Shown in pieces: positions 5,998-62,032 of a stretch of 64,000 nucleotides of DNA. The first letter of the stretch is position 1. The number at the start of each line of letters is the position of its first letter. A program made the translations under genes and the position numbers. The notes under the pieces are model-generated. The model saw only the letters and a program-made list of their open reading frames with translations. It did no database searches and was not told the origin of the DNA. Location: contig CAYQJB010000001.1 of assembly GCA_964417855.1 (NCBI GenBank), positions 166,709 through 230,708 on the forward strand. The letters run 5' to 3'. Source of the DNA: an uncultured Candidatus Saccharibacteria bacterium. GTDB lineage: Bacteria > Patescibacteriota > Minisyncoccia > Phycocordibacterales > CAIZLB01.

Positions 5998-6531
5998 CTA
6001 TCTTAATATATAGGAATTATAAAAATTCTCTGACAGATATTGATCGGAACTTGTTCCATTATCTATCGTCATCTCAACCTTGAAACCATTAAATGTTGAT
6101 GTAGACATGTTTCTAAAGGTAAGGTTTGTAACCCTTACATCAGACAGACTTAAAGGTCCTACATAAATATTATTTTGGTCAAGAAAAACCTGATTGTTTA
6201 ATAAATAAATTTTTGTTGTAGTGGAATGTCCAGCACCATCATAAGCTATCAAGGAAATTGATCCAGTGGCATTATCAAATTTTGTATTCACAATGTCTAT
6301 TGCAGAAGCACTATTCACCTGATTTTCAAAGGCAGCAACAACACCTACAGCACTCCTTTCTATATCCCTAGAGCTTTTTGAAATTAGATATGTTCTTGAG
6401 GCTGAGTCAATCAAGCTCAGTAAGGTAAAAAGCAAAACGGTCATTAGACTTATGTATATAACAGTCTCCATCAAGGAAAAACCTGATTGTTTATTATTCA
6501 TGTTTTTATTCATGTGATAGTTGGAATACAT
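5998..6531 (-). CDS. Prepilin-type (class III signal) pilin / pseudopilin
   Basis: QSGFSLMETVIYISLMTVLLF matches the G|FxLxE prepilin peptidase cleavage/methylation motif. Confidence 0.7.
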   Translation of the reverse strand: MYSNYHMNKNMNNKQSGFSLMETVIYISLMTVLLFTLLSLIDSASRTYLISKSSRDIERSAVGVVAAFENQVNSASAIDIVNTKFDNATGSISLIAYDGAGHSTTTKIYLLNNQVFLDQNNIYVGPLSLSDVRVTNLTFRNMSTSTFNGFKVEMTIDNGTSSDQYLSENFYNSYILR

Positions 6532-6532
6532 T

Positions 6533-7081
6533 TTATTTATTATATATATTGTGAATATATGAAGTTAACGACCTTGTGGATGTTGCTCCATTTTCCTGCC
6601 ACGAAACGCTTACAACATATCCTCTAGTGTCTGTATCCGGCACACCTCCCGAGTCTACAATATTAAAACTAGCAATATCTCTATTAATTGGTGTAAAAAC
6701 TACAGTTCTGGTAAATTTATTATCTACCAGCGATATGGTTGTGGTAGCTTGCCAATTTTTATTACTCTGATTCCAATATAATCCGTATAAAGTATTATTG
6801 CTTAACACTCCTATGTTTTGCCATGAGGCATTTCTCATACTATTAATTGCTGTAACGCCTTCTTCAGCAAGCATTCCAGCTTGAACTCTTTGTGTAGATC
6901 CAAAGCCCAACTTACTTATTCCTGTTTCTAGATTTATAATCAAAATTAAAGATAGACAAATTATACTTGAGCCAATTAGTATTTCAGCAAGACTAAAACC
7001 TCTATTAAGGTTTGTATGACTAGTACAACTAGTCATATCATGCTTCTTTGATCTAAATTTTAATTGTTTTTTTAAAAACAT
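6533..7081 (-). CDS. Prepilin-type minor pilin
   Basis: NRGFSLAEILIGSSIICLSLIL class III signal motif; overlapping and contiguous with the neighbouring pilin genes. Confidence 0.65.
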   Translation of the reverse strand: MFLKKQLKFRSKKHDMTSCTSHTNLNRGFSLAEILIGSSIICLSLILIINLETGISKLGFGSTQRVQAGMLAEEGVTAINSMRNASWQNIGVLSNNTLYGLYWNQSNKNWQATTTISLVDNKFTRTVVFTPINRDIASFNIVDSGGVPDTDTRGYVVSVSWQENGATSTRSLTSYIHNIYNK

Positions 7082-7093
7082 ACCTATTTTTTA

Positions 7094-7564
7094 TTACTTA
7101 GCTTCAATTATACCAGTTCCTGAAATTGTTATTGTTTTTGAATATGACGGTGTACCAACAACAATAGTGCCGGTTGCATTTGGTGCTCCAGTAATCTTTG
7201 CAAAGTCTACTTCATTTTTATGTGACGAAAGATTCACACTTGAAATCTTTATATCAGTTTCCAATTCGTATGTCAGTATGTTGTTTCCACCAGCTTTTGT
7301 AACGCCAGAAAACATAATTACAGTTGAGGATGAAAAAGATACCCCATAAGACGAATCATTTTTTCTATTAAGGGACATGTTTTTAGTCTTTTCTATTGTT
7401 GAAACGACTGAATCAACATCCTTTTCTATAGCCTTCTTTTCTCTAATATTAAAATAAACTTTTGCTGAAATACCGGAGATTATAGCGATCAAAGCAATAA
7501 CAATAATCATTTCCATTAATGTAAAACCAATATTTTTAGTTGTTTTTTTATTTACAGTATCCAT
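7094..7564 (-). CDS. Type IV pilin (PilA/GspG-like)
   Basis: KNIGFTLMEMIIVIALIAIISGI is a canonical GFTLxE N-terminus; 156 aa. Confidence 0.75.
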   Translation of the reverse strand: MDTVNKKTTKNIGFTLMEMIIVIALIAIISGISAKVYFNIREKKAIEKDVDSVVSTIEKTKNMSLNRKNDSSYGVSFSSSTVIMFSGVTKAGGNNILTYELETDIKISSVNLSSHKNEVDFAKITGAPNATGTIVVGTPSYSKTITISGTGIIEAK

Positions 7565-7567
7565 AGT

Positions 7568-8779
7568 TTATATATTATTCATCACAGAATACATTGGAGT
7601 AATCATTGAAATAGCAAAGAACCCAACAGCAGCACCAATAAATACCATAAGGACTGGCTCAATAATTGTGGACAAATCTTTTGTTTTTTGATCAACCTCA
7701 TTTTCATAAAACGTTGCAACCCCAATTAGCATTGTAGAGAGTTTACCAGTTTCTTCTCCTACACTAATCATTTCAGTGACAAAAGCGGGGAATATTTTAC
7801 CCTCCTCTTCAAACACAACAGACATGGGCTCCCCTTTTGTAACAACTATTTCTAGTTTCTTTAGAGCTCGTTTATAATTGCTGTTTTGTAAAACTTCTCC
7901 AGTAATTTTAACAGCGGTTATCATATCCACCCCAGCTGATAGTAAAGAAGACAATGTTCTCGCCGTTCTTGCGGAATTACTTTCAATTACAATTTGCGAA
8001 ATCACCGGGATCCTTAGAACAGCATCGTCCAACACCTTCTTTCCCAGTGAGGTTTTGAAAAAATAATAAGTTCCCATAAAAAAGACAACTAGCCCGACAA
8101 AAGAAAGTATAATATTTGTTGAAAGAAAATCACTTACAGCGATAATAAATTTTGTACTACCAGGTAGCTCTGTTTTTAAATCTTTAAATGTCTTAGTAAG
8201 TCTAGGGACAACATATATCATCATCATAAAACCAACTATTATCATAACCATGAATATTATAGCTGGATACATCATCGCTCCTTTAATTTTCTTTTGCAAA
8301 AGATAGGTCTTCTCCATTTGTATAGACACATCTTTTAGTGATTGAGATAAATTACCAGACTCCTCTCCTGATTTAACCATAGAAACAAATATGGAGGGGA
8401 ATATTTTTGGATATTCAGACAAGGCCTCATTAAAAGTCTTACCGCCAGAAATAGAAACATTTAGGTTTCTAAAAATTTCCTTTAGTTTTGTGTTTGGCGT
8501 TTGCTTCTCAGAAACACTGAGTGCACGGGAAAGAGGCAGACCAGCTTCAAGCATATTAGAGGTATTTCTCGCAAAATTTATTTTATCGATATTTTTAATG
8601 CTAGAAAATAAACTGAACCCCCTTTTGTTACCACCACCTTTAACTTTTTCTTCCTTTACAGAAACTAGCGTTTCAGATCTCTTTCTAAACTCCTCAAAAA
8701 AAGCAGACTTATTTTGAGCCTCTATATCACCACTATATTTTTTGTTCTGACTATTGATTGCTGTAAAATGATATTTCAT
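7568..8779 (-). CDS. pilC: Type IV pilus assembly platform protein PilC (GspF family)
   Basis: 403 aa with duplicated GspF-type domains, a polytopic TM pattern, and a position immediately downstream of pilB. Confidence 0.88.
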   Translation of the reverse strand: MKYHFTAINSQNKKYSGDIEAQNKSAFFEEFRKRSETLVSVKEEKVKGGGNKRGFSLFSSIKNIDKINFARNTSNMLEAGLPLSRALSVSEKQTPNTKLKEIFRNLNVSISGGKTFNEALSEYPKIFPSIFVSMVKSGEESGNLSQSLKDVSIQMEKTYLLQKKIKGAMMYPAIIFMVMIIVGFMMMIYVVPRLTKTFKDLKTELPGSTKFIIAVSDFLSTNIILSFVGLVVFFMGTYYFFKTSLGKKVLDDAVLRIPVISQIVIESNSARTARTLSSLLSAGVDMITAVKITGEVLQNSNYKRALKKLEIVVTKGEPMSVVFEEEGKIFPAFVTEMISVGEETGKLSTMLIGVATFYENEVDQKTKDLSTIIEPVLMVFIGAAVGFFAISMITPMYSVMNNI

Positions 8780-12920: not shown

Positions 12921-14186
12921 ATGTTTGATCTAAAAGTAATTCATTCCGTCCTTGACCAATTAGAAGAAGAGCGCGGAATTCCAAGAGAAAAAATCCTAGA
13001 AGCTATAGAATTAGCCCTAGCAACAGCCTATAAGAAGGAATATGGAAGAAAAGGCCAATATATAAGAGCAATTTTCGATTTAAATACAGGAAACGTAGAA
13101 TTCTGTCAGGTAAAAACAGCTGTTGACCCGGAAACAACCATTTTTCCAAATGAAGATGGGACCCTACCAGAGTCAGCTTATGAAACAAATGAAGATGGTG
13201 AGGAACGTACAATTTTCAATGACGAGCAACACATTCCATTGGATATTGCTAGAAAAATCAAAAAAGACATTCAAGTTGGTGAGGAACTAGTTTTTCCACT
13301 TGAAACTAAGGCAGATTATGGAAGAATCGCAGCTCAAACTGCAAAACAAGTGATTATTCAGAAGATTAGAGAGGCAGAAAAGATTTCTGTACTTAATGAA
13401 TTCGGAAAAAAGGAAGGTGAAATTGTATCAGGAACAGTAGAAAGAAGTGAAAGAGGTACAGTTTTCATAAATATGGGGCGTGCTATAGGTATTCTTCCAT
13501 ATGATGAGCAAATTCCAGGAGAACATTACAATCAAGGAGAAAGAATCAGAGCCTGTTTGATGCGTGTTGAGGAAACTCCAAGAGGTATCTTCCTTAGACT
13601 TTCTCGTGCTACACCTCAATTTTTAGCAGAATTATTCAAAATAGAAGTACCTGAGATAGGAGCCGGAACAGTTGAAGTAAAAGCTGTTGCCAGAGAAGCC
13701 GGAGCAAGATCTAAGATTGCAGTCACTGCGACAGATTCACATATTGACCCAATTGGATCAATGGTTGGACAACGTGGAGTTAGAGTAAATACAGTTATGA
13801 GCGAACTAGGAGGTGAGAAAATCGATATTATTGACTGGTCTGAGAATCCGGCTGAATTCATAGAATCAGCCCTATCTCCAGCAAAAGTAGTAAACATAAC
13901 ACTTAATGAAGTAGATAAGACAGCAACAGTTGAAGTAACGGAGGATCAACAATCACTAGCTATTGGGAAAAGTGGTCAAAATGCAAGACTTGCTGCCAGA
14001 TTAACAGGGTGGAGAATTAATATTCAAGCCGTTAAAGGTGATGAGGGGGCTGAAAATGAAGAAGCTGCTGATCTAAAGGCAGAAAAAGAGGAAGTAATTA
14101 ATGAAGCAGATGTTGCAAAATTAATTGCAGACGGCGTACTTACAGAAGAAAAGACTGAGGAAGAGTCAGTTCTGGGAACAGAATAA
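12921..14186 (+). CDS. nusA: Transcription termination/antitermination factor NusA
   Basis: NusA N-terminal domain, S1 domain and tandem KH domains (GSMVGQRGVRV...). Acidic C-terminal tail. Confidence 0.92.
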   Translation: MFDLKVIHSVLDQLEEERGIPREKILEAIELALATAYKKEYGRKGQYIRAIFDLNTGNVEFCQVKTAVDPETTIFPNEDGTLPESAYETNEDGEERTIFNDEQHIPLDIARKIKKDIQVGEELVFPLETKADYGRIAAQTAKQVIIQKIREAEKISVLNEFGKKEGEIVSGTVERSERGTVFINMGRAIGILPYDEQIPGEHYNQGERIRACLMRVEETPRGIFLRLSRATPQFLAELFKIEVPEIGAGTVEVKAVAREAGARSKIAVTATDSHIDPIGSMVGQRGVRVNTVMSELGGEKIDIIDWSENPAEFIESALSPAKVVNITLNEVDKTATVEVTEDQQSLAIGKSGQNARLAARLTGWRINIQAVKGDEGAENEEAADLKAEKEEVINEADVAKLIADGVLTEEKTEEESVLGTE

Positions 14187-16864: not shown

Positions 16865-17086
16865 ATTAAATTATGTTAATTGTACTTAAAATTTTAGTTT
16901 ATTTTCAAATTATACGCTGTTTGATTTTTCTTAAAATTAAGCGTATTCTTTGAACCATACAGACATCCAGACAAAGCCCTAGATCAATAATTTTGAACCT
17001 ACTGTGGATAACTCCACAAAAGTACCAAAACCATGACAAATCCAAAACTCAGATAAACCCACTATTATATATAATACACTTTGAAC

Positions 17087-17662
17087 ATGTTAATTCCAAC
17101 AGTTATAGAAAAATCACAATTTGGCGAGAGGGCATATGATATATATTCAAGACTTCTAAGAGAAAATATCATTTTTCTTGGGGGACCAATCGATGATAAT
17201 GTAGCAAATATTGTTATCGCACAATTACTATTTTTACAAGCAGAAGATCCAAAGAAGGATATCTCTTTGTACATTAATTCACCAGGGGGTTCAGTTACAG
17301 CAACCTTGGCGATGATTGATACAATGAATTACATCAAGAATGATGTTTCAACAATCTGTGTCGGACTGGCAGCATCAGGTGGTGCATGGCTACTTTCAGC
17401 TGGAAAAAAAGGAAAGAGATATGCATTACAAAATTCAGAAATGATGATTCACCAACCACTACAAGGCGGAATAGAAGGACAAGCATCAGACATAGAAATC
17501 ACAGCAAAACAAATCATTAAGACAAAAGAGAGATTGGCAAAAATGATGGCAGAAAACACTGGACAACCATTAAAGAAGGTTGAAGCTGATGTTGATAGAG
17601 ATTTCTATTTATCAGCAGATGAAGCAAAGAAATACGGACTTATCGACAAAGTTCTATCATAA
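17087..17662 (+). CDS. clpP: ATP-dependent Clp protease proteolytic subunit
   Basis: IPTVIE...[11 protein letters not shown]...INSPGGSV...MIHQP is the ClpP catalytic-triad context. The track ORF starts at a TTG at 17081, but the ATG at 17087 gives the canonical M-IPTVIE start. Confidence 0.9.
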
Positions 17663-22864: not shown

Positions 22865-23476
22865 TTAGTTGAAAAGCGGCAAAACCTTAACCTTACAGCT
22901 CACAAGGTTTGTTTTTGTTACACGTGAACCAGAATGATGAAGACTTATACAAATACCGAGGAATTTAAGGCTTTCTTCCTTAATATCAAAGTCCATACAA
23001 TATTTTAAGGCCATCAATCTGACTTTTCTTAACTTCTCCTTCGTTAGGTTGATCTCTGGCTTCAGCCACTCCACACCCTTTCCGTCTCTAATAACACTTA
23101 TACTAGGGCCAAAAAGGTCGTCTCCCCCACTGTCTTGATTAGAAGGGATTCTAAGGGTTTTAACCTCGACTATGTAATAATAACCGTCTTTTTGCGCAAT
23201 TATATCAATCTCACCTATTTTATTCCTATAATTTCTATCAACTATCTGAAAACCGCGTTTTTCTAAAAAAACTACAGCTATACTCTCACCAAGATCACCA
23301 ACCTTCTTATTTGAATTGCTTTTATCCCCTTTGTCTATCACATCTTCTTTATTATGACTTTTAGATCTTATTCCGAGTTTTATTCTTGATTTGTCCTTTT
23401 TAGAACCCACCTTACTTACTTCCACACCCCTTCCTGTGTCAACTTTGTCCTTTTTTGATTGTTCTATTATGATCAT
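22865..23476 (-). CDS. YraN (UPF0102) family endonuclease-like protein with a K-rich N-terminal extension
   Basis: GDLGESIAVVFLEKRGFQIVDRNYRNKIGEIDIIAQKDGYYYIVEVKT is the YraN core, preceded by ~60 aa of Lys/Ser-rich low-complexity sequence. Confidence 0.65.
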   Translation of the reverse strand: MIIIEQSKKDKVDTGRGVEVSKVGSKKDKSRIKLGIRSKSHNKEDVIDKGDKSNSNKKVGDLGESIAVVFLEKRGFQIVDRNYRNKIGEIDIIAQKDGYYYIVEVKTLRIPSNQDSGGDDLFGPSISVIRDGKGVEWLKPEINLTKEKLRKVRLMALKYCMDFDIKEESLKFLGICISLHHSGSRVTKTNLVSCKVKVLPLFN

Positions 23477-23754
23477 TGTTTATTATTTATTACTATTAAC
23501 AAACGGATGATATACAAACCAGATGAAGAACCTATAAAGATTTATTAAAGAAAAGCAAAAGAAAAGATGTACTTTTTAAGAAAAGAGACAAAATATATAG
23601 ATCACCTTCAACCTAGTGTTTCTCATGAAACGTTGAAAATGAGGTTACAAACGGGTTAAACATACAAAAAAACACCATTTAGTAGCAAAATAAGGGTTTC
23701 ATAGGAAACACCCCGTATTATTGTCAAGAAAATAGCAATATTTTACTAAAAGAC

Positions 23755-23886
23755 AGTGGATAGCCACTTATCCACACAATTAAACCTTATTTATAGCCAT
23801 ATATTGCGTTTTTCCTTATAAAATAGCATTTCTGTATAAGCCTGATTTCTATGTCTTTTATACACATATCCACGGAGTTATCCACA
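23755..23886. promoter_or_regulatory. Cluster of four DnaA-box-like 9-mers (two perfect TTATCCACA)
   Basis: Perfect boxes at 23768-23776 and 23878-23886. A 7/9 box at 23866-23874 and an inverted 7/9 box at 23755-23763. All lie in a 500-bp ORF-free region between yraN-like and the tRNA pair. Confidence 0.5.
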
Positions 23887-23991
23887 GTCTAGGACATTTT
23901 ATAAGTCACTTAGGGACAAAAATGCCGTCTCATACCAATCTTAACTACACCGCAATAACCAACCATTCTTTATGATCTAACTATCAAATTG

Positions 23992-24062
23992 TGCGGGTAG
24001 GGAGAATCGAACTCCCGTCTCGTCCTTGGCAAGGACGCATTCTACCACTAAACCATACCCGC
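23992..24062 (-). tRNA. tRNA-Gly (anticodon GCC), no encoded CCA
   Basis: GCGGGTA acceptor stem, anticodon loop UUGCCAA, GGTTCGATTC T-arm. Confidence 0.85.
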
Positions 24063-24103
24063 ATATTATTTTGCTTTATTATTATAACACTAAATTATAA
24101 TTG

Positions 24104-24175
24104 TGCACCCGCCAGGACTCGAACCTGGAATAACGGTTCCGAAGACCGTTGTGATATCCATTTCACCACGGGTGC
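24104..24175 (-). tRNA. tRNA-Arg (anticodon UCG), no encoded CCA
   Basis: GCACCCG acceptor stem, anticodon loop CUUCGGA, GGTTCGAGTCC T-arm. The track ORF 23991..24191 is an artefact across both tRNAs. Confidence 0.8.
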
Positions 24176-24256
24176 ATATTCCATATCCTGATCACCACTG
24201 AGACAGTCTACATCATAGATAGCAAAAAATCAAAAGGTGTACTAATATTCTATATA

Positions 24257-25783
24257 ATGACTACTAAAGACATAAACAATAATCCAATAAAAGAACTGAG
24301 TAACAAACTACTAAAAAAAATAGACCAGGGTAGTGTTCCTGCCTATATACAGAATATCGTCATCAAACTGCAGGAAGCGGGCTTTTCAGCTTATTTAGTA
24401 GGGGGTTGTGTAAGAGACCTGATATTAAAGAAACAGCCAAAAGACTGGGATATTACAACAAGCGCAAAACCTGAAGATATAATCAAAACTTTTGAAGAGA
24501 CATTTTATGAAAATGACTTTGGAACTGTTGGTATAAAAATAAGAAAAGGGACAGGGGAGACAGAAATAGTAGAAGTTACACCCTATAGAACAGAAGGTGA
24601 TTACTCAGATAGCAGACATCCTGATGAGGTAACTTTCAGCAGTAATATAAAGGACGACCTTCTGAGAAGAGACTTTACAATTAACGCAATGGCATATGAT
24701 TCAGTAAAAGACACTATAGTTGATGAGTTTGAGGGTTTAAAGGACATAAAAGACAAGGTCATAAGGGCAGTAGGAGACCCAGTTAAACGATTTCACGAAG
24801 ATGGACTCAGATTGATTAGGGCGGTTCGTTTTGCTGCCGAATTAGGTTTCATGATTAACATAGACACACAAGAAGCTATCATATCGGAATCCGGGGTTCT
24901 TAAGAAAATTGCAACAGAAAGGATTAGGGAAGAATTCGATAAATTACTTATGTCTAAACAGCCTGCCTTAGGTATAGCGATGGCTCAAAAGCTTGGTTTG
25001 TTGAGTATTTTCTGCCCAGAACTTGAGGGAGCGGTTCATGTGAAACAAAACCAAGCCCATTCTTATGATGTTTTTGAGCATCTCTTGAGGAGTTGTCAGT
25101 GTGCTGCGGACAAAAATTGGAGGCTGGAGATAAGATTAGCTGCTTTATTCCACGATATTGGAAAGCCACCAACAAAAAGGGGTAGTGAAACAAGTGATAT
25201 AACCTTTTATGGACATGAGGTTGTTGGCGCTAAAATGTCTAAAGTTATATTAGAAAGGATGAAGTATCCAACAAAAGTTATTACAGTTGTTACAAAACTG
25301 ATCCGTTGGCACATGTTTTTCTCGGATACTGAACAAATAACACCCTCAGCTGTCCGAAGAATGATAGCAAATGTTGGCAAGGAATACATTTGGGACTTAG
25401 TAGACCTAAGAATTTGCGACCGTGTAGGAACGGGAAGACCCAAGGAAAACCCTTACAGACTTAGAAAATACAGGGCTCTTATTGAGGAGGTGATGATGGA
25501 CCCAATTGATGTGGGGATGCTTAAAATTGATGGAAATACGCTGATTAAGGAATTAAACATACCAGCAGGGCCAATTATAGGACTAATTTTAAATGCTTTA
25601 CTTGAGGAGGTTCTAGAGAAACCAGAACTTAACACACAAGAGTACCTTACAAAAAGGGCTATAGAAATTTCTATGTTTCCCATGAAACAACTCAAGGAAC
25701 TATCTGAAAAGGGGGTATTAAGAAAAAAAGACCTAGAAAATGAGCAAATAGAGGAAATCAGAAAAAAGCACGATATTAGATAG
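24257..25783 (+). CDS. cca: CCA-adding tRNA nucleotidyltransferase with HD domain
   Basis: PolyA-polymerase head domain (AYLVGGCVRDLIL...DWD), followed by an HD domain (LFHDIGKP...GHE...). Confidence 0.85.
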   Translation: MTTKDINNNPIKELSNKLLKKIDQGSVPAYIQNIVIKLQEAGFSAYLVGGCVRDLILKKQPKDWDITTSAKPEDIIKTFEETFYENDFGTVGIKIRKGTGETEIVEVTPYRTEGDYSDSRHPDEVTFSSNIKDDLLRRDFTINAMAYDSVKDTIVDEFEGLKDIKDKVIRAVGDPVKRFHEDGLRLIRAVRFAAELGFMINIDTQEAIISESGVLKKIATERIREEFDKLLMSKQPALGIAMAQKLGLLSIFCPELEGAVHVKQNQAHSYDVFEHLLRSCQCAADKNWRLEIRLAALFHDIGKPPTKRGSETSDITFYGHEVVGAKMSKVILERMKYPTKVITVVTKLIRWHMFFSDTEQITPSAVRRMIANVGKEYIWDLVDLRICDRVGTGRPKENPYRLRKYRALIEEVMMDPIDVGMLKIDGNTLIKELNIPAGPIIGLILNALLEEVLEKPELNTQEYLTKRAIEISMFPMKQLKELSEKGVLRKKDLENEQIEEIRKKHDIR

Positions 25784-25855
25784 AGTTTAACCATTACCCA
25801 AATTCAAAACAAGTAACTAGACAATAAGGTGCATACTCAATAAATACAAACTAAC

Positions 25856-25886
25856 AAAAATACCGCTCTATAGGCGGTATTTTTGT
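25856..25886 (+). terminator. Rho-independent terminator after cca
   Basis: ATACCGC-TCTATAG-GCGGTAT stem-loop flanked by AAAA/TTTTT. Confidence 0.7.
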
Positions 25887-26382
25887 TAGTTTTTTAAAAT
25901 GTAAAACTCTTTATAGAAAGAGCCTCAGTACTGGACGCAACAAGGTTATAGTTATTATGATGCGGCCGTACTAAGGCCCTCGAAACAAGTGTGGGAAACG
26001 AAACAAGTAGAAACGATTGAGAAAATTGAGATATTTATTTAATTGTTGTGGGTTGTCTCTATGATTATGGGGTAGGCCAGTGTAAGTCCTGTATTCTCCA
26101 TTTAAATGTGATGCCCAGATTAGAGCTCACTAAGCTAATTTTGGGAGAATTTAAAATGTCCTTTATTACCAACCAATCCGTATCATTAAGACTTCCTCAA
26201 AGAACTATTTGACCCGATGTTGGGCCGCTCATCTGTCCTTTATTCTAATTCATATTAAAGACATGTAAAGGACATTATCGTAAATTCTTGTGGATAACTT
26301 TTTATTTATTTATTATTTCATTCTGACCGCTATGATAAAGGACATTCTAGTGTTAAATATTTTGTGAAATTATTTAATTATT

Positions 26383-27210
26383 CTACTGAAATAAGTTATC
26401 CACAACTAATTTTACTGGGCAGTGATCTGAACCTGTAAAATCATCTTCTATTGTGCATGATTTTATTTGATTCATAATTTTCTTCGATACAAAAAAATAA
26501 TCTATTCTCCATCCAACGTTTCTTTCTCGAGCAAACGTTTTCATGTCCCACCAAGTATAAGCGTCTATTTTATGTGGGTGTAACTCCCTAAAAACATCTA
26601 CATACCCAGCTTCAATGAATTTATCAATCCAAATTCTCTCTTCAGGTAAAAATCCTATACTTTTTTTGTTTTGTTTCGGTCTAGCTAAGTCTATTTCCTC
26701 ATGAGCCACATTAACATCACCACAAAAAACAACACTTAAGCCTTTGTTTGTAAGCTTTTTACAGTATTTCAAAAATTCTTTGTAAAAATCAAGTTTATAC
26801 TGAAATCTCTCTGGGGCGCCCCCTCCATTTGGAAAATAGCAGTTAATTAGTGCCCACTTATCAAAAATCAAACATATCATTCTACCTTCCTGATCCATCT
26901 TTGGTATTCCAAACCCATACTCAATTTTATTTGGAGTTGTTAATATGTCCTTCATATATATTGCTATTCCACTGTATCCTTTTTTGAGTTTAGAATGATC
27001 AAAATAACTAACGTAACCTTTAGGGTTTAGTATTTTTTCATCTAACTGATCTACGTGTACCTTGGTCTCTTGCATACACATAAAATCTGTGTTCTGTTGC
27101 ATAATTAACTCAAAAGACCCCTTTCTGTGTATAGCTCTTAAACCATTTACGTTCCATGAAATTATACTTAATTGTTTTTTCATTTTATTAAAGACATTAT
27201 TTTTAATCAT
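26383..27210 (-). CDS. xth: Exodeoxyribonuclease III
   Basis: LSIISWNVNGLRA start; ExoIII catalytic motifs; 275 aa. Confidence 0.9.
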   Translation of the reverse strand: MIKNNVFNKMKKQLSIISWNVNGLRAIHRKGSFELIMQQNTDFMCMQETKVHVDQLDEKILNPKGYVSYFDHSKLKKGYSGIAIYMKDILTTPNKIEYGFGIPKMDQEGRMICLIFDKWALINCYFPNGGGAPERFQYKLDFYKEFLKYCKKLTNKGLSVVFCGDVNVAHEEIDLARPKQNKKSIGFLPEERIWIDKFIEAGYVDVFRELHPHKIDAYTWWDMKTFARERNVGWRIDYFFVSKKIMNQIKSCTIEDDFTGSDHCPVKLVVDNLFQ

Positions 27211-34181: not shown

Positions 34182-36158
34182 ATGCATCCACAAACACAAT
34201 CACAAGCATTAACCGGTCTAAATGAAATGCAAAAAGAGGCAGTCACAACACTACATGGACCTCTACTTATATTGGCTGGGGCTGGGGCTGGCAAAACAAA
34301 AACCGTTACACACAGAATTCTAAACTTAATAGAAAACGGTGTTTCCCCTGAATCAATTCTCGCTATTACCTTTACAAATAAAGCCGCTAAGGAAATGCGT
34401 GAGCGTGTGGAACATTTAATTGGAAGCAGCAGAGAGATGAATCTACCTATTCATAACTTCTCAAAGCCTTTCGTATCAACATTTCACTCCCTTTGTCTAA
34501 ATATATTAAAAGAGTCAGGTGACGCAATTGGCATTCCTCGTAATTTTACAATTTACGACAAAAGTGATTCCAAACAAGCCATAAGAGAGGCCGTAAACTC
34601 ACTTGGTTATGACATTAAAATGGTTGAACCTAATAAAATAATGTCTATAATTTCAAGAGAAAAGAGCAATTTTTCATCTATTGGGGCGTATGAAGCGGTA
34701 AATGGAGAAGATCATTTTGGGGCGATAGTAACAGCGGTCTGGAAAAAATATGCTGAGGCACTTTTTAAAGAAAAAGCTCTTGATTTTGACGATTTATTAT
34801 ATAAAGCGGCTGTTCTCCTTAAAACAAAGCCTGAAATTAGGGCTATGTATCAGAATCGATTCAAATTTATTCATATTGACGAATATCAGGATACAAATGG
34901 TATTCAATATGAGCTTGCTCGTCTTTTGGTAGGACCTGAACATAATATTGCCGTAGTCGGGGATATTGATCAGGCTATTTATAGCTGGAGAGGGGCCAAT
35001 ATAAAGAACATTATGAAATTTGAGACTGATTATCCAGAAGCTAAGGTTATTTTACTTGAAGAAAACTATAGATCCACAAAAACGATACTCTCTGCAGCAA
35101 ATGAAATAATTAAGAAAAACATATTTAGAAAAGACAAGAATCTGTTCACAAACAATGAGGATGGGGAATTAATAACCCTATATAACGCTTATGATGAGAA
35201 CGATGAAGCAAATCATGTAGCCAATACATCTAGAGATTTAATAGCTGAAGGCAAAAAAGCGGAAAAAATAGCCGTTTTATACAGAACAAACTCACAGTCG
35301 CGTGCTCTTGAAGAGGCTTTTCTTAGAAAAGGCATAGATTACCAACTCCTAGGAACAAGATTCTTTGAAAGAAGGGAGGTTAAAGATGTTATTTCCTACG
35401 CACGAGCAGCACTTAATCCAGAAAGTCTTGCTGATATAAAGAGAATAATAAACACCCCAGTAAGAGGAATCGGAAAGGTGACGCTCATTAAGATAATGGC
35501 TGATCAAACAGCGGGACTTCCTTCTGCAACAAAACTTAAGGTTGATAACTTTTACGCATTACTATCCAGTATTAAGAACCAAATTGAAACACAAAGACCA
35601 TCGGTTGCAATAAAATTTATTATTGAAAAAACAGGAATAGAGGCAGCACTCAAAGCAGAGAATGATAAAGAAGAAGACCGAGTTGGAAACATTAGAGAAT
35701 TAGTAACACTTGCTACAAGATACGATGACATGCCAGGAAAAGAGGGAATTGAAAAACTTATCGAAGATGCCGTGCTCGCTAGTGATCAAGATTCTTTAAA
35801 TGAAAAGACTGCAAAAAATAACGGAACAGGTGTGAAACTTATGACCGTTCACGCTTCCAAAGGTCTAGAGTTTGATTATGTTTTTATAACCGGACTGGAG
35901 CAAGATTTATTTCCAAGTGGTAGATCATCAGAAGGAAAATCCGGAGAAGATCAAGAGGAAGAAAGGAGATTATTTTATGTTGCCTTAACCCGTGCTCGCA
36001 CAAAACTTTATTTATCTTACGCTAACATGAGAACAATCTTTGGAAGCAAACAAATCAATTTACCATCTGAGTTTATAAAGGACATTAGTGATACACTTAT
36101 CGAGAGACATGATCAGGAAATATCTGGGGGAATAAAATCTATTTTTATAGATTTCTAG
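34182..36158 (+). CDS. UvrD/PcrA-family ATP-dependent DNA helicase
   Basis: GPLLILAGAGAGKTKTVTHRI Walker A; UvrD helicase motifs through VHASKGLEFDYVFI...LFYVALTRAR. Confidence 0.9.
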   Translation: MHPQTQSQALTGLNEMQKEAVTTLHGPLLILAGAGAGKTKTVTHRILNLIENGVSPESILAITFTNKAAKEMRERVEHLIGSSREMNLPIHNFSKPFVSTFHSLCLNILKESGDAIGIPRNFTIYDKSDSKQAIREAVNSLGYDIKMVEPNKIMSIISREKSNFSSIGAYEAVNGEDHFGAIVTAVWKKYAEALFKEKALDFDDLLYKAAVLLKTKPEIRAMYQNRFKFIHIDEYQDTNGIQYELARLLVGPEHNIAVVGDIDQAIYSWRGANIKNIMKFETDYPEAKVILLEENYRSTKTILSAANEIIKKNIFRKDKNLFTNNEDGELITLYNAYDENDEANHVANTSRDLIAEGKKAEKIAVLYRTNSQSRALEEAFLRKGIDYQLLGTRFFERREVKDVISYARAALNPESLADIKRIINTPVRGIGKVTLIKIMADQTAGLPSATKLKVDNFYALLSSIKNQIETQRPSVAIKFIIEKTGIEAALKAENDKEEDRVGNIRELVTLATRYDDMPGKEGIEKLIEDAVLASDQDSLNEKTAKNNGTGVKLMTVHASKGLEFDYVFITGLEQDLFPSGRSSEGKSGEDQEEERRLFYVALTRARTKLYLSYANMRTIFGSKQINLPSEFIKDISDTLIERHDQEISGGIKSIFIDF

Positions 36159-43468: not shown

Positions 43469-43924
43469 ATGAGATATCAAACACCACAATTTATTGAGGA
43501 GGAAACAAAACTATTTGGCCCACTTACTTTTAAGCAGTTCGTATATCTAATTGGAGGAGCTGGTATCTCTTTTGCTGTATACAAAATGCTTCCGTTTCTT
43601 TTGGCAATACTAATAATCGCACCTGTTGCTGGAGCCTCGCTTGCTTTGGCTTTCTATAAGATAAATGAAAGACCTTTTATAGACGCCGTGGAAGCAGCCT
43701 TCTATTTTATTATATCAAACCGTCTTTACACGTATCAAAAAATAGATAAACCTACTCAGCAATTAAGAACTTCACAAAAGACAATGATTGCCCCCGTACC
43801 TAAGATTGGGGCATCCACAAGCAGACTTAAGGATTTGGCATGGAGCTTAGATATCAATGAGAATATAAAAGATAAAAGTAAGGACAACTTTGATATGGGG
43901 GTTAATGATAAAATAAAAATATAA
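43469..43924 (+). CDS. PrgI/TcpE-family (VirB3-like) small membrane protein
   Basis: RYQTPQFIEEETKLFGPLTFKQFVYLIGGAGISFAVYKM and a two-TM layout match the PrgI family pattern. It lies directly upstream of VirB4. Confidence 0.6.
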   Translation: MRYQTPQFIEEETKLFGPLTFKQFVYLIGGAGISFAVYKMLPFLLAILIIAPVAGASLALAFYKINERPFIDAVEAAFYFIISNRLYTYQKIDKPTQQLRTSQKTMIAPVPKIGASTSRLKDLAWSLDINENIKDKSKDNFDMGVNDKIKI

Positions 43925-43932
43925 TTAATAAA

Positions 43933-44589
43933 ATGGCATCAAATCAAGAAAATTTTTCAAAACCTACACAAGATTTTGTCCCTATAAAAGAAGTTAGAGA
44001 TGGAATTGTTATATTAAAAGATGGTTCTATGAGGGCTATTCTTCTTGCTTCTTCTATTAACTTTGCATTGAAGTCTCCTGAAGAACAACAGTCTGTTCTT
44101 TATCAGTTTCAAAACTTTTTAAATTCAATAAACTTTTCTATACAAATCTTTGTTCAATCAAGAAGACTAGATATTACGCCTTATATTAACCTTCTTGAAG
44201 ATAGAATAAAATTCCAATCAAGTGAACTTATGAAGGTTCAAACAAGGGAGTACATGGACTTCGTTAGAAATCTAACTGAGTCAGTAAACATTATGACAAA
44301 AAGTTTCTTTGTTGTTGTTCCATATTCTCCAACTGTACTTAATAAAAAAGGGGGTGTGTTTGGAGGTATGTTTGGAGGTAAAAAAACATCTAAAGAATCT
44401 GAGAATGACGAGTATCTTCAGTTTGAAGAATTTAAAAGCCAACTTCAACAAAGAGTAGAGGTTGTAGAACAAGGTCTTGTTAGATGTGGAGTTAGAATCG
44501 CTCAACTTGGAACTGAAGAAATCATTGAGTTCTTCTACAAACTCTTCAATCCAGGTACTGTTGAAAAACCAATAGATATGTCTAAGTAA
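43933..44589 (+). CDS. VirB4/PrgJ/TcpF-like ATPase, N-terminal domain (separate ORF)
   Basis: FVPIKEVRDGIVILKDGSMRAILLASSINFALKSPEEQQSVLYQFQNFLNSI resembles the N-terminal CagE/TrbE/VirB4 region of Gram-positive VirB4 homologues. It ends with a TAA 60 nt before the next ATG. Confidence 0.55.
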   Translation: MASNQENFSKPTQDFVPIKEVRDGIVILKDGSMRAILLASSINFALKSPEEQQSVLYQFQNFLNSINFSIQIFVQSRRLDITPYINLLEDRIKFQSSELMKVQTREYMDFVRNLTESVNIMTKSFFVVVPYSPTVLNKKGGVFGGMFGGKKTSKESENDEYLQFEEFKSQLQQRVEVVEQGLVRCGVRIAQLGTEEIIEFFYKLFNPGTVEKPIDMSK

Positions 44590-53324: not shown

Positions 53325-53707
53325 TTTATAGCTGTTAAAATTAGAGATATCAAAAGAAGGAGGTGTATTGAAAAATACCCTCTTTTTTATTATTCAAGAA
53401 TATATAAAACATACATATCCTTAATTACTTATGTGCATAAGTCTGTGTATAAAGTGTTTATAGATAGTTAGTATACTGTTAAGAACCTGTATTCAACATG
53501 TTATTTAAAAAGTATAAGCTGTGTACTAAAAGGTAGTTATAAACAGGTCTATAAAAGACATGTTCTGAATCACCATATAAAACACTGTCTTTTAGTCTGT
53601 CCTTTATTTAAATACGTTTAAATCATAGGATATATCAAAAAGTCCACATATCCACAGGTATAGTAGTAATAGATGTTTTTTATTAATAAAGATATAATCA
53701 ATACATT
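53325..53707. promoter_or_regulatory. dnaA-dnaN intergenic region, candidate oriC/DUE
   Basis: 383 bp, strongly AT-rich. DnaA-box-like ATATCCACA at 53648-53656 with an adjacent TCCACA. One copy of the TGTCCTTTATT motif at 53598-53608. Confidence 0.5.
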
Positions 53708-54838: not shown

Positions 54839-55096
54839 ATGGTAAATATAGGTGATTTATTGAAAGATTATTTAAAAATTAAAAACCCTTTAGTTGATAA
54901 AGTGTCCTTGTCTGATGAACTAAATAAAGAATTTAATTTAAATATCAAAGAAGAGCAAGTTTTTTTTAGAAAAAATGTACTTATATTAAAAGTTAATGCT
55001 GTTCAAAAAAGTTTTGTTTTTATGAGAAAAAACGCTGTTTTAGAAACTGTTAACAGAATATGCCCTGATAGATTCATAGATACAATACAGTTCTAA
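54839..55096 (+). CDS. DUF721/DciA-like small protein
   Basis: 85 aa. The C-terminus VFFRKNVLILKVNAVQKSFVFMRKNAVLETVNRICPDRFIDTIQF follows the DUF721 hydrophobic pattern. Sits at the conserved post-dnaN position. Confidence 0.45.
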   Translation: MVNIGDLLKDYLKIKNPLVDKVSLSDELNKEFNLNIKEEQVFFRKNVLILKVNAVQKSFVFMRKNAVLETVNRICPDRFIDTIQF

Positions 55097-60322: not shown

Positions 60323-62032
60323 CTATTTTTCCTCCTCAATATAATCATCTTTTGTTAAGTCTATAACTCTCTCTAATTCTTCAAAAGAAGTTTGCCCTTG
60401 TAAAACTTTTACTACACCATCTTGTCTCATGTCCATAAAGCCTTGTTTTTTTGCAACAGCCCTAATCTCTCTTTCACTTGGGTTCTCTCTAACAATCTTT
60501 TCAATAGAAGCGTCTGTTAATATTAATTCATGAATACCAACTCTATCTGCATACCCAGTGTTGTTGCAGGCAACGCACCCAACAGGAACATATATTTCAG
60601 TTGGTTTTTCAGGGAACTCTTTTGCTTCTTCCATGTCTTTGATTGAATCAAGAACATCGTCAACCAAAGCTATTCTTTCAGGTGGTATTGGCATCTTCTT
60701 TTTGCATTTTTCACAAAGCACTCTAACAAGACGTTGAGCAATAGCGGCATGAATAGCCGATGTTAATGTTTTTGGATCAGCACCAAGATCTATTAGTCTA
60801 GTAAATGTTCCTGCGGCATTGTTTGTGTGGAGTGTTGAGAACACAAGGTGTCCTGTTAGTGCGGCGTTAATGGCAGTAACGGCTGTTTCGGCGTCTCTGA
60901 TTTCTCCAACCATTATAATGTCTGGGTCTTGTCTCATTGCAGATTTTAAACCAGCCTGAAACGTATAACCTTTGGCATCTTCAACTTGTGTTTGAACAAT
61001 TCCAGGAAGGTGATATTCAACAGGGTCTTCAATTGTAATAATCTTATATTCAGGACTTGATACCTCTCTTAAAAAGGCATAAAGAGTTGTTGTTTTTCCA
61101 GAACCAGTTGGTCCTGTTGTTAAAATTAAACCATTTGGTCTAGCAATTTCTTTTCTAATTGCTGCTAAAAAACGCTTTGTCATTCCTAATTTATCCATAG
61201 TAACCATAATAGATTCTGGATTTAGAATACGCATAACCACAGACTCACCATATGAACCAGGGATTGTTGATGTTCTAATTTCTATGTCACTTCCCTTAAG
61301 TTTAACTGTAAATCTTCCGTCTTGAGCATTTTCTTTAACGTTTAATTTTAATCCAGACAAAAGTTTTAAGCGTGAGAGCATAAGGTTGTATGTGTCCTTG
61401 TCGAATTCTGCAACAGTGGTCAAAACACCATCAATTCTATAACGCAGTCTGGAATTAAATTCTCCAGCCTCCATGTGAACATCGGATGATTTTGTAGAAA
61501 GAGCTCCAGCCATCATAATAGAAAGCATTTTTGAAACACGGTGAGTTTTCTTCATTTCAAGAGCTTCTTTTATCCAAGTTGCAATATCCTCTAGTTTTTT
61601 TGTTCTCTCAACCAAAGATTCAATTTCCTCACTTGAAATATCTAATGATCCAGCCTCAGTTTGAGCCGCAAAAGAAAGGTCTTTATATCTTTCCCATGCC
61701 TTTTCTAAACTATGTGTTGATGCGATAAAAAGTGTTACTTGATAACCCTTTCTACCCAGATTATCTAGTACATCCTTTGTTTCAATACTATCTGGGGAGT
61801 GAACAGCTAAAGATATTTTAGTACCAATTATATCAAACACTGCGGTTTGGCTTGATTTTGCAACCTCCTCCTCTATCATTTTTAAACCATCTGAGTTAAT
61901 TGGAACAGTTGTTAGGTCAATGTAGGTAAGATTGTATTTATCCGCCAACATTTGCATAGAAGCTTCTTCTTCATCAATAAGAAGTTGTTTCATTCTTGTG
62001 TCTTGTTTTTCTTCATCAAATTGAATTGTCAT
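60323..62032 (-). CDS. Second GspE/PilB-family secretion/pilus ATPase (paralogue)
   Basis: T2SSE_N-like N-domain; Walker A LILTTGPTGSGKTTTLY; CVACNNTGY zinc-binding-type CxxC. 569 aa, clearly distinct from the PilB at 8824..10608. Confidence 0.8.
   Translation of the reverse strand: MTIQFDEEKQDTRMKQLLIDEEEASMQMLADKYNLTYIDLTTVPINSDGLKMIEEEVAKSSQTAVFDIIGTKISLAVHSPDSIETKDVLDNLGRKGYQVTLFIASTHSLEKAWERYKDLSFAAQTEAGSLDISSEEIESLVERTKKLEDIATWIKEALEMKKTHRVSKMLSIMMAGALSTKSSDVHMEAGEFNSRLRYRIDGVLTTVAEFDKDTYNLMLSRLKLLSGLKLNVKENAQDGRFTVKLKGSDIEIRTSTIPGSYGESVVMRILNPESIMVTMDKLGMTKRFLAAIRKEIARPNGLILTTGPTGSGKTTTLYAFLREVSSPEYKIITIEDPVEYHLPGIVQTQVEDAKGYTFQAGLKSAMRQDPDIIMVGEIRDAETAVTAINAALTGHLVFSTLHTNNAAGTFTRLIDLGADPKTLTSAIHAAIAQRLVRVLCEKCKKKMPIPPERIALVDDVLDSIKDMEEAKEFPEKPTEIYVPVGCVACNNTGYADRVGIHELILTDASIEKIVRENPSEREIRAVAKKQGFMDMRQDGVVKVLQGQTSFEELERVIDLTKDDYIEEEK

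Follow-up and report, generated by a model that had tools for sequence, protein, structure and literature searches.

The 64,000-nucleotide stretch of DNA analysed here (the window; positions 166,709 to 230,708 of contig CAYQJB010000001.1, GenBank assembly GCA_964417855.1) derives from an uncultured Candidatus Saccharibacteria bacterium of the Patescibacteria or Candidate Phyla Radiation (CPR), and it contains, between a cca and an xth gene, a region devoid of sizeable open reading frames (ORFs) in which copies of a 9- to 10-bp box accompany binding sites for the replication initiator DnaA. This region probably comprises the promoter-operator and the body of a gene on the minus strand that specifies a structured, conserved non-coding RNA, the promoter of which would be gated by DnaA and a protein that recognises the box. 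The components of this reading that are regarded as established, at the level of sequence comparison, are the geometry of the promoter, the spacing of the DnaA box, the helical phasing of the boxes, the BoxA-like leader, the terminator, the covariation of base pairs, the selection of boxes within coding DNA, and their confinement to one domain. An earlier inspection of the same DNA, referred to here as the original prediction, had suggested that the region could encode a small RNA or be a regulatory hub, and this suggestion is supported by a promoter at a conserved position, a leader with a BoxA-like element, a terminator, covarying base pairs, and recurrence in more than 100 metagenome contigs.

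Recurrence of the box and conservation of the locus

The box, TGTCCTTTAY, was observed six times in the window compared to an expectation of 0.44, and six or more copies were reached in none of 100 dinucleotide shuffles. Exact copies are located at 26157-26166 (+), 26234-26243 (+), 26265-26274 (-, TGTCCTTTAC), 26335-26344 (-), 53598-53607 (+), and 36075-36084 (-). The over-representation had been anticipated, and the four copies in the region as well as the one in the dnaA-dnaN spacer were recovered at the positions proposed before, with deviations of at most one base; the copy at 36075 was absent from the earlier list. This sixth copy is isolated within a gene encoding a UvrD-like helicase, without a DnaA box nearby, and is probably a coding coincidence. 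The degenerate form TGTC[CT]TTTA has 16 sites in the window on both strands, nine of which are intergenic (binomial P = 3e-5), and all nine belong to the only three intergenic regions of the window with DnaA boxes (23477-23990, 25784-26382, and 53325-53707). Moreover, seven of the 11 copies of the 8-mer core of the box fall within 23380-26350, which represents 4.6% of the window (P = 1e-7).

The genes flanking the region are those named in the original prediction, i.e., a CCA-adding-enzyme-like gene (cca, 24257-25783, +; PolyA_pol and HD domains) and an exonuclease III gene (xth, 26383-27210, -). Just two ORFs of 54 and 35 amino acids lie between them, in line with the description of the region as ORF-free, and the former has no match in Pfam. 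The G+C content of the window is 32-39%. All Xth homologues found originate from uncultured Patescibacteria/CPR, and in the two closest genomes (loci L001 and L002, with Xth 74-76% identical) much of the xth-cca spacer alignment is near-invariant. The alignment of these two spacers with that of the window combines large blocks of invariant columns with a variable T-rich middle part and with insertions and deletions of one and two bases. Near-invariance together with non-triplet insertions and deletions, and the lack of a conserved ORF, argues against the proposal that the region is the decayed remnant of a lost gene.

The motif is found directly downstream of xth in 8 of 11 related genomic loci. 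Metagenome contigs were scanned with the pattern TTATCCACA-N(8-24)-TGTCCTTTAC, which yielded at least 120 stretches, and the locus counts given below refer to the matches listed. With all gaps of 8-24 bp permitted, the distances form a sharp peak, as 98 of the 128 matches listed have 13-16 bp between DnaA box and box. Since these loci were picked by the pattern and not via xth, they are unbiased with respect to synteny; among the matches listed with a gap of 11-17 bp, xth is directly upstream in 46 of the 83 that have enough upstream sequence, and a convergent cca gene follows downstream in 47 of 67, while neither xth nor cca accompanies any of the listed matches with off-peak gaps. More than 100 patescibacterial metagenome contigs contain the composite TTATCCACA-N13-16-TGTCCTTTAC, which in most cases is flanked by xth and cca, and the RNA locus recurs in contigs and metagenome-assembled genomes labelled Paceibacterota, Patescibacteria, and Saccharibacteria.

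The composite was also encountered in phage DNA. At 8600-8690 of a contig that encodes a large terminase and a major head protein (L012), and likewise in L137, L144, and L149, it is positioned between the large terminase gene and the next gene, and in L012 it consists of a DnaA box, TGTCCTTTACA, TGTCTTTTAT, and TACAAT at +27. These phages may have borrowed a regulatory module of their host.

That the repeats arose by chance, are left from a decayed gene, or merely form the arms of hairpins at the RNA level is so improbable as to be practically negligible. The genome is AT-rich, and inverted copies could pair in an xth transcript that reads through, but the number of copies exceeds that of every shuffled sequence, the arrangement is kept in more than 100 contigs, the metagenome matches do not represent one clonal sequence, and the RNA bodies fall into many unrelated clusters. 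A role as hairpin arms is moreover difficult to reconcile with the spacing of inverted copies, which ranges from 0 to 24 bp and includes zero-loop palindromes that are incapable of forming RNA hairpins, with the placement of three of the four copies of the region at or upstream of the predicted transcription start, and with the presence of the 9-mer in two reading frames of cca.

Architecture of the promoter and its probable operator

The best promoter-like site within 25700-26500 is of the sigma-70 type and is located at 26242-26274 on the minus strand, where TTTACA (26269-26264) and TAGAAT (26247-26242) are separated by 16 nucleotides and match 10 of the 12 consensus positions. The anchor box TGTCCTTTAC (26274-26265, -) contains the -35 hexamer, a degenerate tandem box TGTCTTTAA (26263-26255, -) fills the promoter spacer, and an inverted box (26234-26243, +), which reads ATAAAGGACA in the RNA sense, overlaps the -10 hexamer and the start site. 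Judging by the geometry of the promoter, transcription would start near A26234, and the CAG context of this position is also seen in relatives. A perfect DnaA box, TTATCCACA (26289-26297, -), covers positions -55 to -63 (approximately -59) and is situated 14 bp upstream of the -35 box, and a further box, TGTCCTTTAT (26335-26344, -), is found at approximately -101 to -110 and is kept in L001 and L002. A second perfect DnaA box, in inverted orientation (26396-26404, +), lies in the last codons of xth and is kept in L001, L002, and L120, so that both flanking DnaA boxes reported earlier were retrieved. The approximately 98 bp between these two DnaA boxes are AT-rich by appearance. Most other lineages have a single DnaA box at the promoter of the related locus.

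This geometry is shared by the related loci. In 42 of 68 loci a -10-like hexamer with at least five of six matches to TATAAT starts at +27 or +28, as counted from the initial base of the anchor box; the box therefore includes the -35 hexamer TTTACA, and 16-17 bp separate the two hexamers. Additional forward boxes among 76 loci are found at -12/-11 in 12 loci and at +11/+12 in 21 loci, corresponding to approximately one helical turn, and inverted boxes in the same set occur at -40 to -50, just upstream of the DnaA box, and at +10 to +39, the latter in 15 of the 76 loci. Several lineages carry a perfect 18-bp palindrome, TGTCCTTTATAAAGGACA, upstream. The pooled consensus of 172 non-anchor copies in the related loci reads TGTC(C>T)TTTA followed by T/A-rich bases. 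The exact 9-mer is densest around the promoter in these loci (1.9-3 per kb), followed by cca (approximately 0.9 per kb) and the DNA up to +4.5 kb (0.1-0.35 per kb), compared to approximately 0.01 per kb beyond -500 on the upstream side. The boxes are confined to the interval from -0.5 to +4.5 kb around the promoter.

The copies at 26234 and 26265 form an inverted repeat with a gap of 21 bp, which had been recognised before and had been interpreted as the operator of a dimeric transcription factor. Part of this interpretation stands, as the pair spans the promoter from the -35 hexamer to the -10 hexamer and position +1, and perfect 18-bp palindromes are present in relatives. A fixed dimer site is not what was found, however, as the inverted copies are spaced by 0, 7, 8, 10, 21, or 24 bp depending on the lineage, and direct repeats with a phase of 11-12 bp occur no less frequently. 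Because of this variable spacing and the frequency of direct repeats, an asymmetric 9-mer that would be read by a monomer and used in arrays fits better than a dimer site of fixed spacing. The boxes display the kind of arrangement by which OmpR/PhoB-type operators are recognised, namely direct repeats with a periodicity of 10-11 bp that overlap the -35 region. Other kinds of site, i.e., dif/Xer sites, Tn7-like end arrays, and those of IHF, SpoIIID, WhiA, or a relaxed DnaA box, were considered on the basis of their consensus sequences, and none fits well.

The gene clpP (17081-17662) is preceded, at a distance of approximately 70 bp, by one more perfect DnaA box (17003-17011), in the vicinity of which TGTCYTTTA is absent.

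Structure of the predicted RNA

The predicted non-coding RNA gene extends from 26234 to 25905 on the minus strand (approximately 330 nucleotides), or has a length of approximately 385 nucleotides if it ends at a second terminator at 25848. Its 5' leader (26199-26226, -) consists of the hairpin GGCCCAACAUCGGGUC (26226-26211) followed by the BoxA-like element AGUUCUUU (26206-26199). The box copy within the transcribed region (26157-26166, +) reads AUAAAGGACA at RNA positions +69 to +78 and is specific to the clade of the window; other clades have a second BoxA-like element, GCUCUUUUU, at what by eye appears to be the corresponding place. A rod-like domain of seven stacked helices is predicted at approximately 26051-26196 (-) by RNAalifold and by pair counts on the alignment of the window clade (A2, see below). 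The probable 3' end is formed by a long hairpin (25981-25920) followed by UUUCU (25915-25981, -). Its 21 pairs are identical in five distinct sequences and are therefore uninformative with respect to covariation; the entire hairpin, loop included, is nearly invariant in these five sequences, which are variable elsewhere. A bidirectional intrinsic terminator (25848-25892, both strands), called on the minus strand, is shared with the convergent cca gene. All units examined in full (17 loci) end in a hairpin and a T run, 200-450 nucleotides after the start.

The only widely shared sequence downstream of the start is the BoxA-like element (A/T)G(T/C)TCTT(T/C). Its variant AGTTCTTT is present in 29 of 82 loci and in none of 62 background stretches, and TGTTCTTT and AGCTCTTT were found in 18 and 20 of the 82 loci, respectively, compared to one and none of the 62 background stretches. 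The occurrences peak at +60 to +110 from the anchor box, i.e., approximately 20-70 nucleotides after the start, and are usually 3' of a hairpin. BoxA of Escherichia coli is UGCUCUUUAACA, and the element reads TGTTCTTTAAACAATC in L011. The BoxA core and the 12-mer of Aquifex, GGCUCCUUGGCA, were taken from the literature (PMC3177189), and the BoxA-like element matches positions 2-8 of this core.

Folding and pair counts agree with a structured transcript of the minus strand, which folds better than its shuffled counterparts (z = -2.07), whereas the plus strand does not (z = -0.46). In the alignment of the window clade (A2, six sequences) 67 pairs are predicted with 99% of the cells paired, and seven pairs display double changes versus 2.9 in shuffles. 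In the alignment of an unrelated clade (A3, 11 sequences) 22 pairs are predicted with 89% of the cells paired, and 12 pairs display double changes versus 6.4 +/- 1.4, a count that was reached in none of 500 shuffles; slid controls of A3 were paired in 38-47% of the cells. The RNA body is near-invariant over much of its length in L001, L002, L055, L062, and L120, and what is common to the sequences in a multi-clade alignment is limited to the context of the start, the hairpin, BoxA, and a second block that resembles CUCUCUUUUGAAGG.

The covariance-model scan that the original prediction had proposed was performed with Rfam 15, which includes 6S RNA, RNase P, tmRNA, SRP RNA, riboswitches, and large non-coding RNAs. 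Among the window and 30 related loci only tRNAs were detected at threshold (the gathering threshold being applied to the window and 10 loci, and relaxed E-values to the region and 20 further loci), and the region itself matched no family. At E <= 10 the region returned only terminator-type leader matches, which recognise just the 25848-25892 terminator, and no tmRNA was found by ARAGORN.

A strong promoter, a 5' hairpin, a BoxA-like element that in L011 reads as given above, and a second CUCUCUUUUGAAGG-like block are also what would be expected of a relic or mimic of the promoter and leader of a ribosomal RNA operon, kept without its rRNA as a unit that responds to Nus factors or growth rate, and the neighbouring tRNA genes and the origin-proximal position agree with such a descent. 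This explanation is nevertheless unlikely, as rRNA probes gave no match in any of 131 loci and the similarity to 16S rRNA is no better than that of reversed controls. A reduced 16S-like molecule or rRNA relic had been considered on the basis of matches seen by eye, i.e., AGTACGGCCGCA in the 3' hairpin, which equals positions 889-900 of E. coli 16S rRNA but is a match at chance level (E of approximately 0.05), a block resembling CUGGUUCAGG, and, at the terminator, CUGCGGCUG. This candidate was rejected, as blastn-short against a manually entered E. coli 16S rRNA sequence yielded the same distribution of hits as the reversed controls, with a best E of approximately 0.05 for both.

Boxes in coding sequence and the origin-proximal domain

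Three boxes (TAAAAGACA, TAAAGGACA, and TAAAAGACA) are embedded in the coding sequence of cca at 24705-24755 (+), and at least one copy of the 9-mer TAAA(A/G)GACA is present within cca in 34 of 53 distinct homologues. At homologous positions these copies are read in two frames, namely as xTA AAR GAC Axx (I/L-K-D-I/K; 42 sites) and as xxT AAA GGA CAx (Y/S/D-K-G-Q/H; 21 sites), which yields the peptides IKDI, LKDI, or IKDK versus YKGQ, SKGQ, or DKGH. The [ILV]KD peptides in the cca homologues are encoded exactly as the box in 46 of 54 cases, compared to approximately 18% expected from codon usage, and in L028 an insertion in cca carries a five-copy box array. As judged from this codon choice, the box is a DNA-level signal that is selected inside cca and not merely a part of the promoter.

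Upstream of yraN (UPF0102), a cluster of DnaA boxes (TGTGGATAA, GTGGATAT, TGTGTATAA, TGTGGATAA, and TATCCAC) is combined with two boxes (23747, -; 23852, +) at 23740-23890. The module TGTGGATAA-N-GGGGATAT-TGTATAAARGACA is found again upstream of yraN in relatives (9681-9811 in L001, 9501-9631 in L002, 4696-4827 in L120, and further loci), where it commonly has tRNA genes before it and parS-like sequences after it. In the window as in relatives, the module is composed of three tandem DnaA-box-like 9-mers (TGTGGATAA, GGGGATAT, and TGTGTATAA), and it ends in TGTATAAA(A/G)GACA, so that the final DnaA box and the box overlap. Near its 5' end, the coding sequence of yraN itself (23392-23453) contains AAAGGACA twice within 60 bp, as K-G-Q and as K-D-K, i.e., in two frames as in cca.

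Sites resembling parS (TGTTNCACGTGNAACA, with at most two mismatches) are enriched in the same stretch. Among 68 loci their density is 0.8-1.4 per kb at 0-1.5 kb and at 2.5-3 kb downstream versus approximately 0.03 per kb upstream, and 47 of the 68 loci contain such sites, which are enriched beyond the end of the RNA gene, toward the 3' end of cca, and ahead of yraN. The only sites of the window are degenerate, with one mismatch at 22916, two at 25674, and three at 23617 and 25032. On the basis of this distribution, the xth-cca-yraN stretch may be the main parS cluster of these chromosomes.

These observations lend some weight to an account in which the boxes are mainly architectural, i.e., belong to an origin-proximal locus for chromosome organisation or DnaA control, comparable to datA/DARS or to the DnaA-box clusters of Bacillus on a parS centromere, with an accessory protein that would bind TGTCCTTTA beside DnaA boxes and parS sites and with the promoter and the RNA being secondary, for example by keeping the locus open or insulated. 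Boxes are beside or overlap DnaA boxes in two conserved clusters, they are held in cca (including the five-copy array of L028) at the expense of codon usage and of the encoded protein sequence, a distance of 27 kb separates the locus from oriC, and both the coding-embedded boxes and the parS enrichment are better explained in this manner than by an RNA promoter with its operator. The best-conserved geometry is however that of the promoter, with its -10 hexamer at +27/+28, followed by BoxA and the terminator, this promoter has just one DnaA box in the majority of lineages, and the parS-like sites of the window carry one to three mismatches. The architectural account is a real but minor possibility, and it is compatible with a promoter-operator and RNA gene rather than exclusive of it.

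Relation to the chromosomal origin

The dnaA-dnaN spacer (53325-53707) contains the elements of an oriC module, with degenerate DnaA boxes at 53432 and 53444, the DnaA-box pair GTCCACATATCCACA at 53642-53656, the DnaA-trio-like sequence TAGTAGTAATAG at 53661-53672, and an AT-rich run. A DnaA-box pair, DnaA-trios, and an AT-rich element make up the unwinding module of the Firmicutes type. The same module ends the spacer in five relatives (L132-L136; DnaA 64-76% identical), and by these features the dnaA-dnaN spacer is the true oriC. An 85-amino-acid ORF (54839-55096) without a Pfam match directly follows dnaN, and relatives have an ORF of 84-86 amino acids at the same place, which may encode a small replication-associated protein.

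In the window this spacer carries three boxes at 53552-53631 (+), namely TAAAAGACA at 53552, TGTCTTTTA at 53586, and TGTCCTTTA at 53598, with a -10-like TAGGAT at +28. They constitute a promoter-like site that has the same geometry as the RNA promoter and points into the DnaA-box pair, the DnaA-trio, and dnaN. The connection between the region and this spacer that was drawn from the fifth box copy is hence upheld for the window itself, but TGTCYTTTA is absent from the dnaA-dnaN spacers of the five relatives, and the box copies at this position are therefore lineage-specific.

The RNA locus lies 27 kb from oriC, and its inverted perfect DnaA boxes around approximately 98 bp of AT-rich-looking DNA and its phased, iteron-like 9-mers raise the question whether it could be a second or alternative replication origin, as known from plasmids or from chromosome 2 of Vibrio. 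Gene orientation switches between 12.5 and 28 kb, and the raw cumulative GC skew is flat and at its minimum at approximately 27-34 kb, both of which would be in keeping with an origin at this location. The skew at third codon positions (GC3), corrected for gene orientation, changes sign near 54-56 kb and gives no signal at 26 kb. A second origin is very unlikely, as the full unwinding module is in the dnaA-dnaN spacer of the window and of the five relatives, trios are lacking in the xth-cca region, the element is the point of convergence of xth and cca, and in most lineages it includes just one DnaA box and leaves no room for an unwinding element.

Elsewhere in the window (5998-7564, 43469-44589, and 60323-62032), genes were noted for pilin-like proteins that bear an N-terminal methylation motif, type IV secretion proteins of the PrgI/TraC-like kind, and an ATPase of the T2SSE family. 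Such surface machinery has been reported for CPR bacteria.

Discussion

The promoter-operator and RNA gene proposed here could function as follows. One sequence-specific DNA-binding protein would read the asymmetric 9-bp box, in arrays phased at 11-12 bp or in inverted pairs, and this protein and DnaA bound at approximately -59 would together set the firing rate of the RNA promoter, so that the output of RNA would be tied to the cycle of replication and segregation. The protein could act in two modes, either by activation, replacing the -35 contact in a PhoB-like manner, or by repression, occluding the promoter from -35 to +1; repression or gating is favoured because of the dense coverage with boxes from approximately -110 to +1. 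The BoxA-like element would recruit NusB and NusE, which would allow the untranslated RNA to escape Rho, as in rRNA operons. The same protein would also occupy the boxes in cca, those at the DnaA-box cluster of yraN, and, in this lineage, those of the promoter-like site at oriC, and the sharing of boxes among these sites would make the RNA unit part of an origin-proximal domain of 3-4 kb that is rich in parS-like sites.

Several observations count against this proposal. A Pfam scan of approximately 49 window proteins identified HU, NusA (12921-14186), and DksA-like proteins, and neither a candidate for a specific transcription factor nor a winged-helix response regulator among them. Both the transcript itself and its ends and abundance are predicted, and the consensus structures were predicted from the same alignments as were used for the pair counts. 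RNA bodies were not linked across clades by blastn or iterated nhmmer, consistent with rapid divergence, and as the bodies diverge this quickly, homology of the RNA throughout the CPR rests on a shared architecture and a few short blocks. The BoxA-like element is partly drawn into a helix in the structures of both clades; BoxA of rRNA operons is not usually shown base-paired. Finally, simple promoter control does not account for the coding boxes in cca, approximately 1.5 kb away from the promoter, and in yraN, approximately 2.8 kb away.

A more far-reaching version, which is put forward tentatively and is itself improbable, regards TGTCCTTTA as the site of a cell-cycle protein common to the Patescibacteria that assembles together with DnaA, and possibly with ParB, and regards the BoxA-bearing RNA as functional in the control of replication or segregation rather than as an ordinary small RNA. 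The domain would then have the order xth - non-coding RNA - parS - cca - tRNA - DnaA-box cluster - parS - yraN. If true, this would be a kind of control locus that is undescribed in other bacteria, with binding sites inside an essential gene for tRNA maturation.

Patescibacteria/CPR represent a large and mostly uncultured share of bacterial diversity, and to our knowledge almost nothing is known about their transcription or cell-cycle regulation. Literature searches on the motif, and on origins, non-coding RNAs, and transcription-factor motifs of the CPR, retrieved nothing relevant, and neither the RNA nor a protein that would read the box was encountered in the databases and papers covered. 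The parts of the locus (promoter, operator array, DnaA box, BoxA, and non-coding RNA) are of known kinds, and what is unusual is their combination, the conservation of one 9-mer throughout a superphylum, and its retention in two frames of an essential gene. Four leads emerge from the analysis: an RNA family outside Rfam 15 that has an antitermination signal of the rRNA type and no rRNA; a 9-bp word that is conserved as well as the adjoining DnaA box and overrides the choice of codons and even of amino acids in cca; the physical linkage of box, DnaA boxes, and parS-like sites near the origin; and phages that carry the same composite. These leads could open a first view of cell-cycle-coupled regulation in the CPR.

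Comparison with known systems

The features of the locus recall several characterised systems in part. The BoxA of rRNA operons and of the lambda nut sites, which engages NusB-NusE, shares with the element described here the sequence (A/U)G(U/C)UCUU(U/C), the position 20-70 nucleotides after the start and usually after a hairpin, and the placement in an untranslated transcript; it differs in that here no rRNA or other long gene follows, the unit ends at 200-450 nucleotides, and the box is predicted to be partly paired. The DnaA-box clusters of Bacillus subtilis and datA/DARS of E. coli resemble the locus in having perfect DnaA boxes outside oriC yet near the origin, here at a fixed distance from a promoter and accompanied by the cluster of three to five boxes upstream of yraN. 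In contrast to datA/DARS, the partner 9-mer is neither the IHF nor the Fis site of E. coli, and only one or two DnaA boxes are found at the RNA promoter.

Auxiliary operators such as lac O2 in lacZ provide a precedent for sites within an ORF near the regulated promoter that constrain codon choice, whereas the sites in cca number up to three to five copies, reside in a convergent neighbouring gene approximately 1.5 kb away, are conserved throughout a superphylum, and occupy two frames. The origin of Vibrio cholerae chromosome 2, with its RctB 11- and 12-mers, one DnaA box, and rctA, likewise has phased short repeats and only one DnaA box, next to which a non-coding RNA is transcribed; it is set apart by the canonical oriC that is present elsewhere in the genome studied here, the lack of an adjoining initiator gene, and the absence, in most lineages, of an unwinding element.

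The closest analogue is probably provided by operators of the PhoB/MtrA type (OmpR/PhoB family). The E. coli Pho box (CTGTCAT-N4-CTGTCAT), the GTCACA repeats of MtrA, and the PhoP site (TGTTTA-N5-TGTTTA) have a period of 11 bp and overlap or replace the -35 hexamer, and in Mycobacterium tuberculosis MtrA binds beside DnaA boxes in oriC and in the dnaA promoter. A comparison of consensus sequences yields as common traits a TGTC-type core, copies at -12, 0, and +11/12, a -35 hexamer inside the box, and an adjacent DnaA box, while the boxes described here differ in sequence, in the common occurrence of inverted pairs and 18-bp palindromes, and in the sites within coding sequence, which makes the relation to PhoB and MtrA operators one of resemblance rather than of membership.

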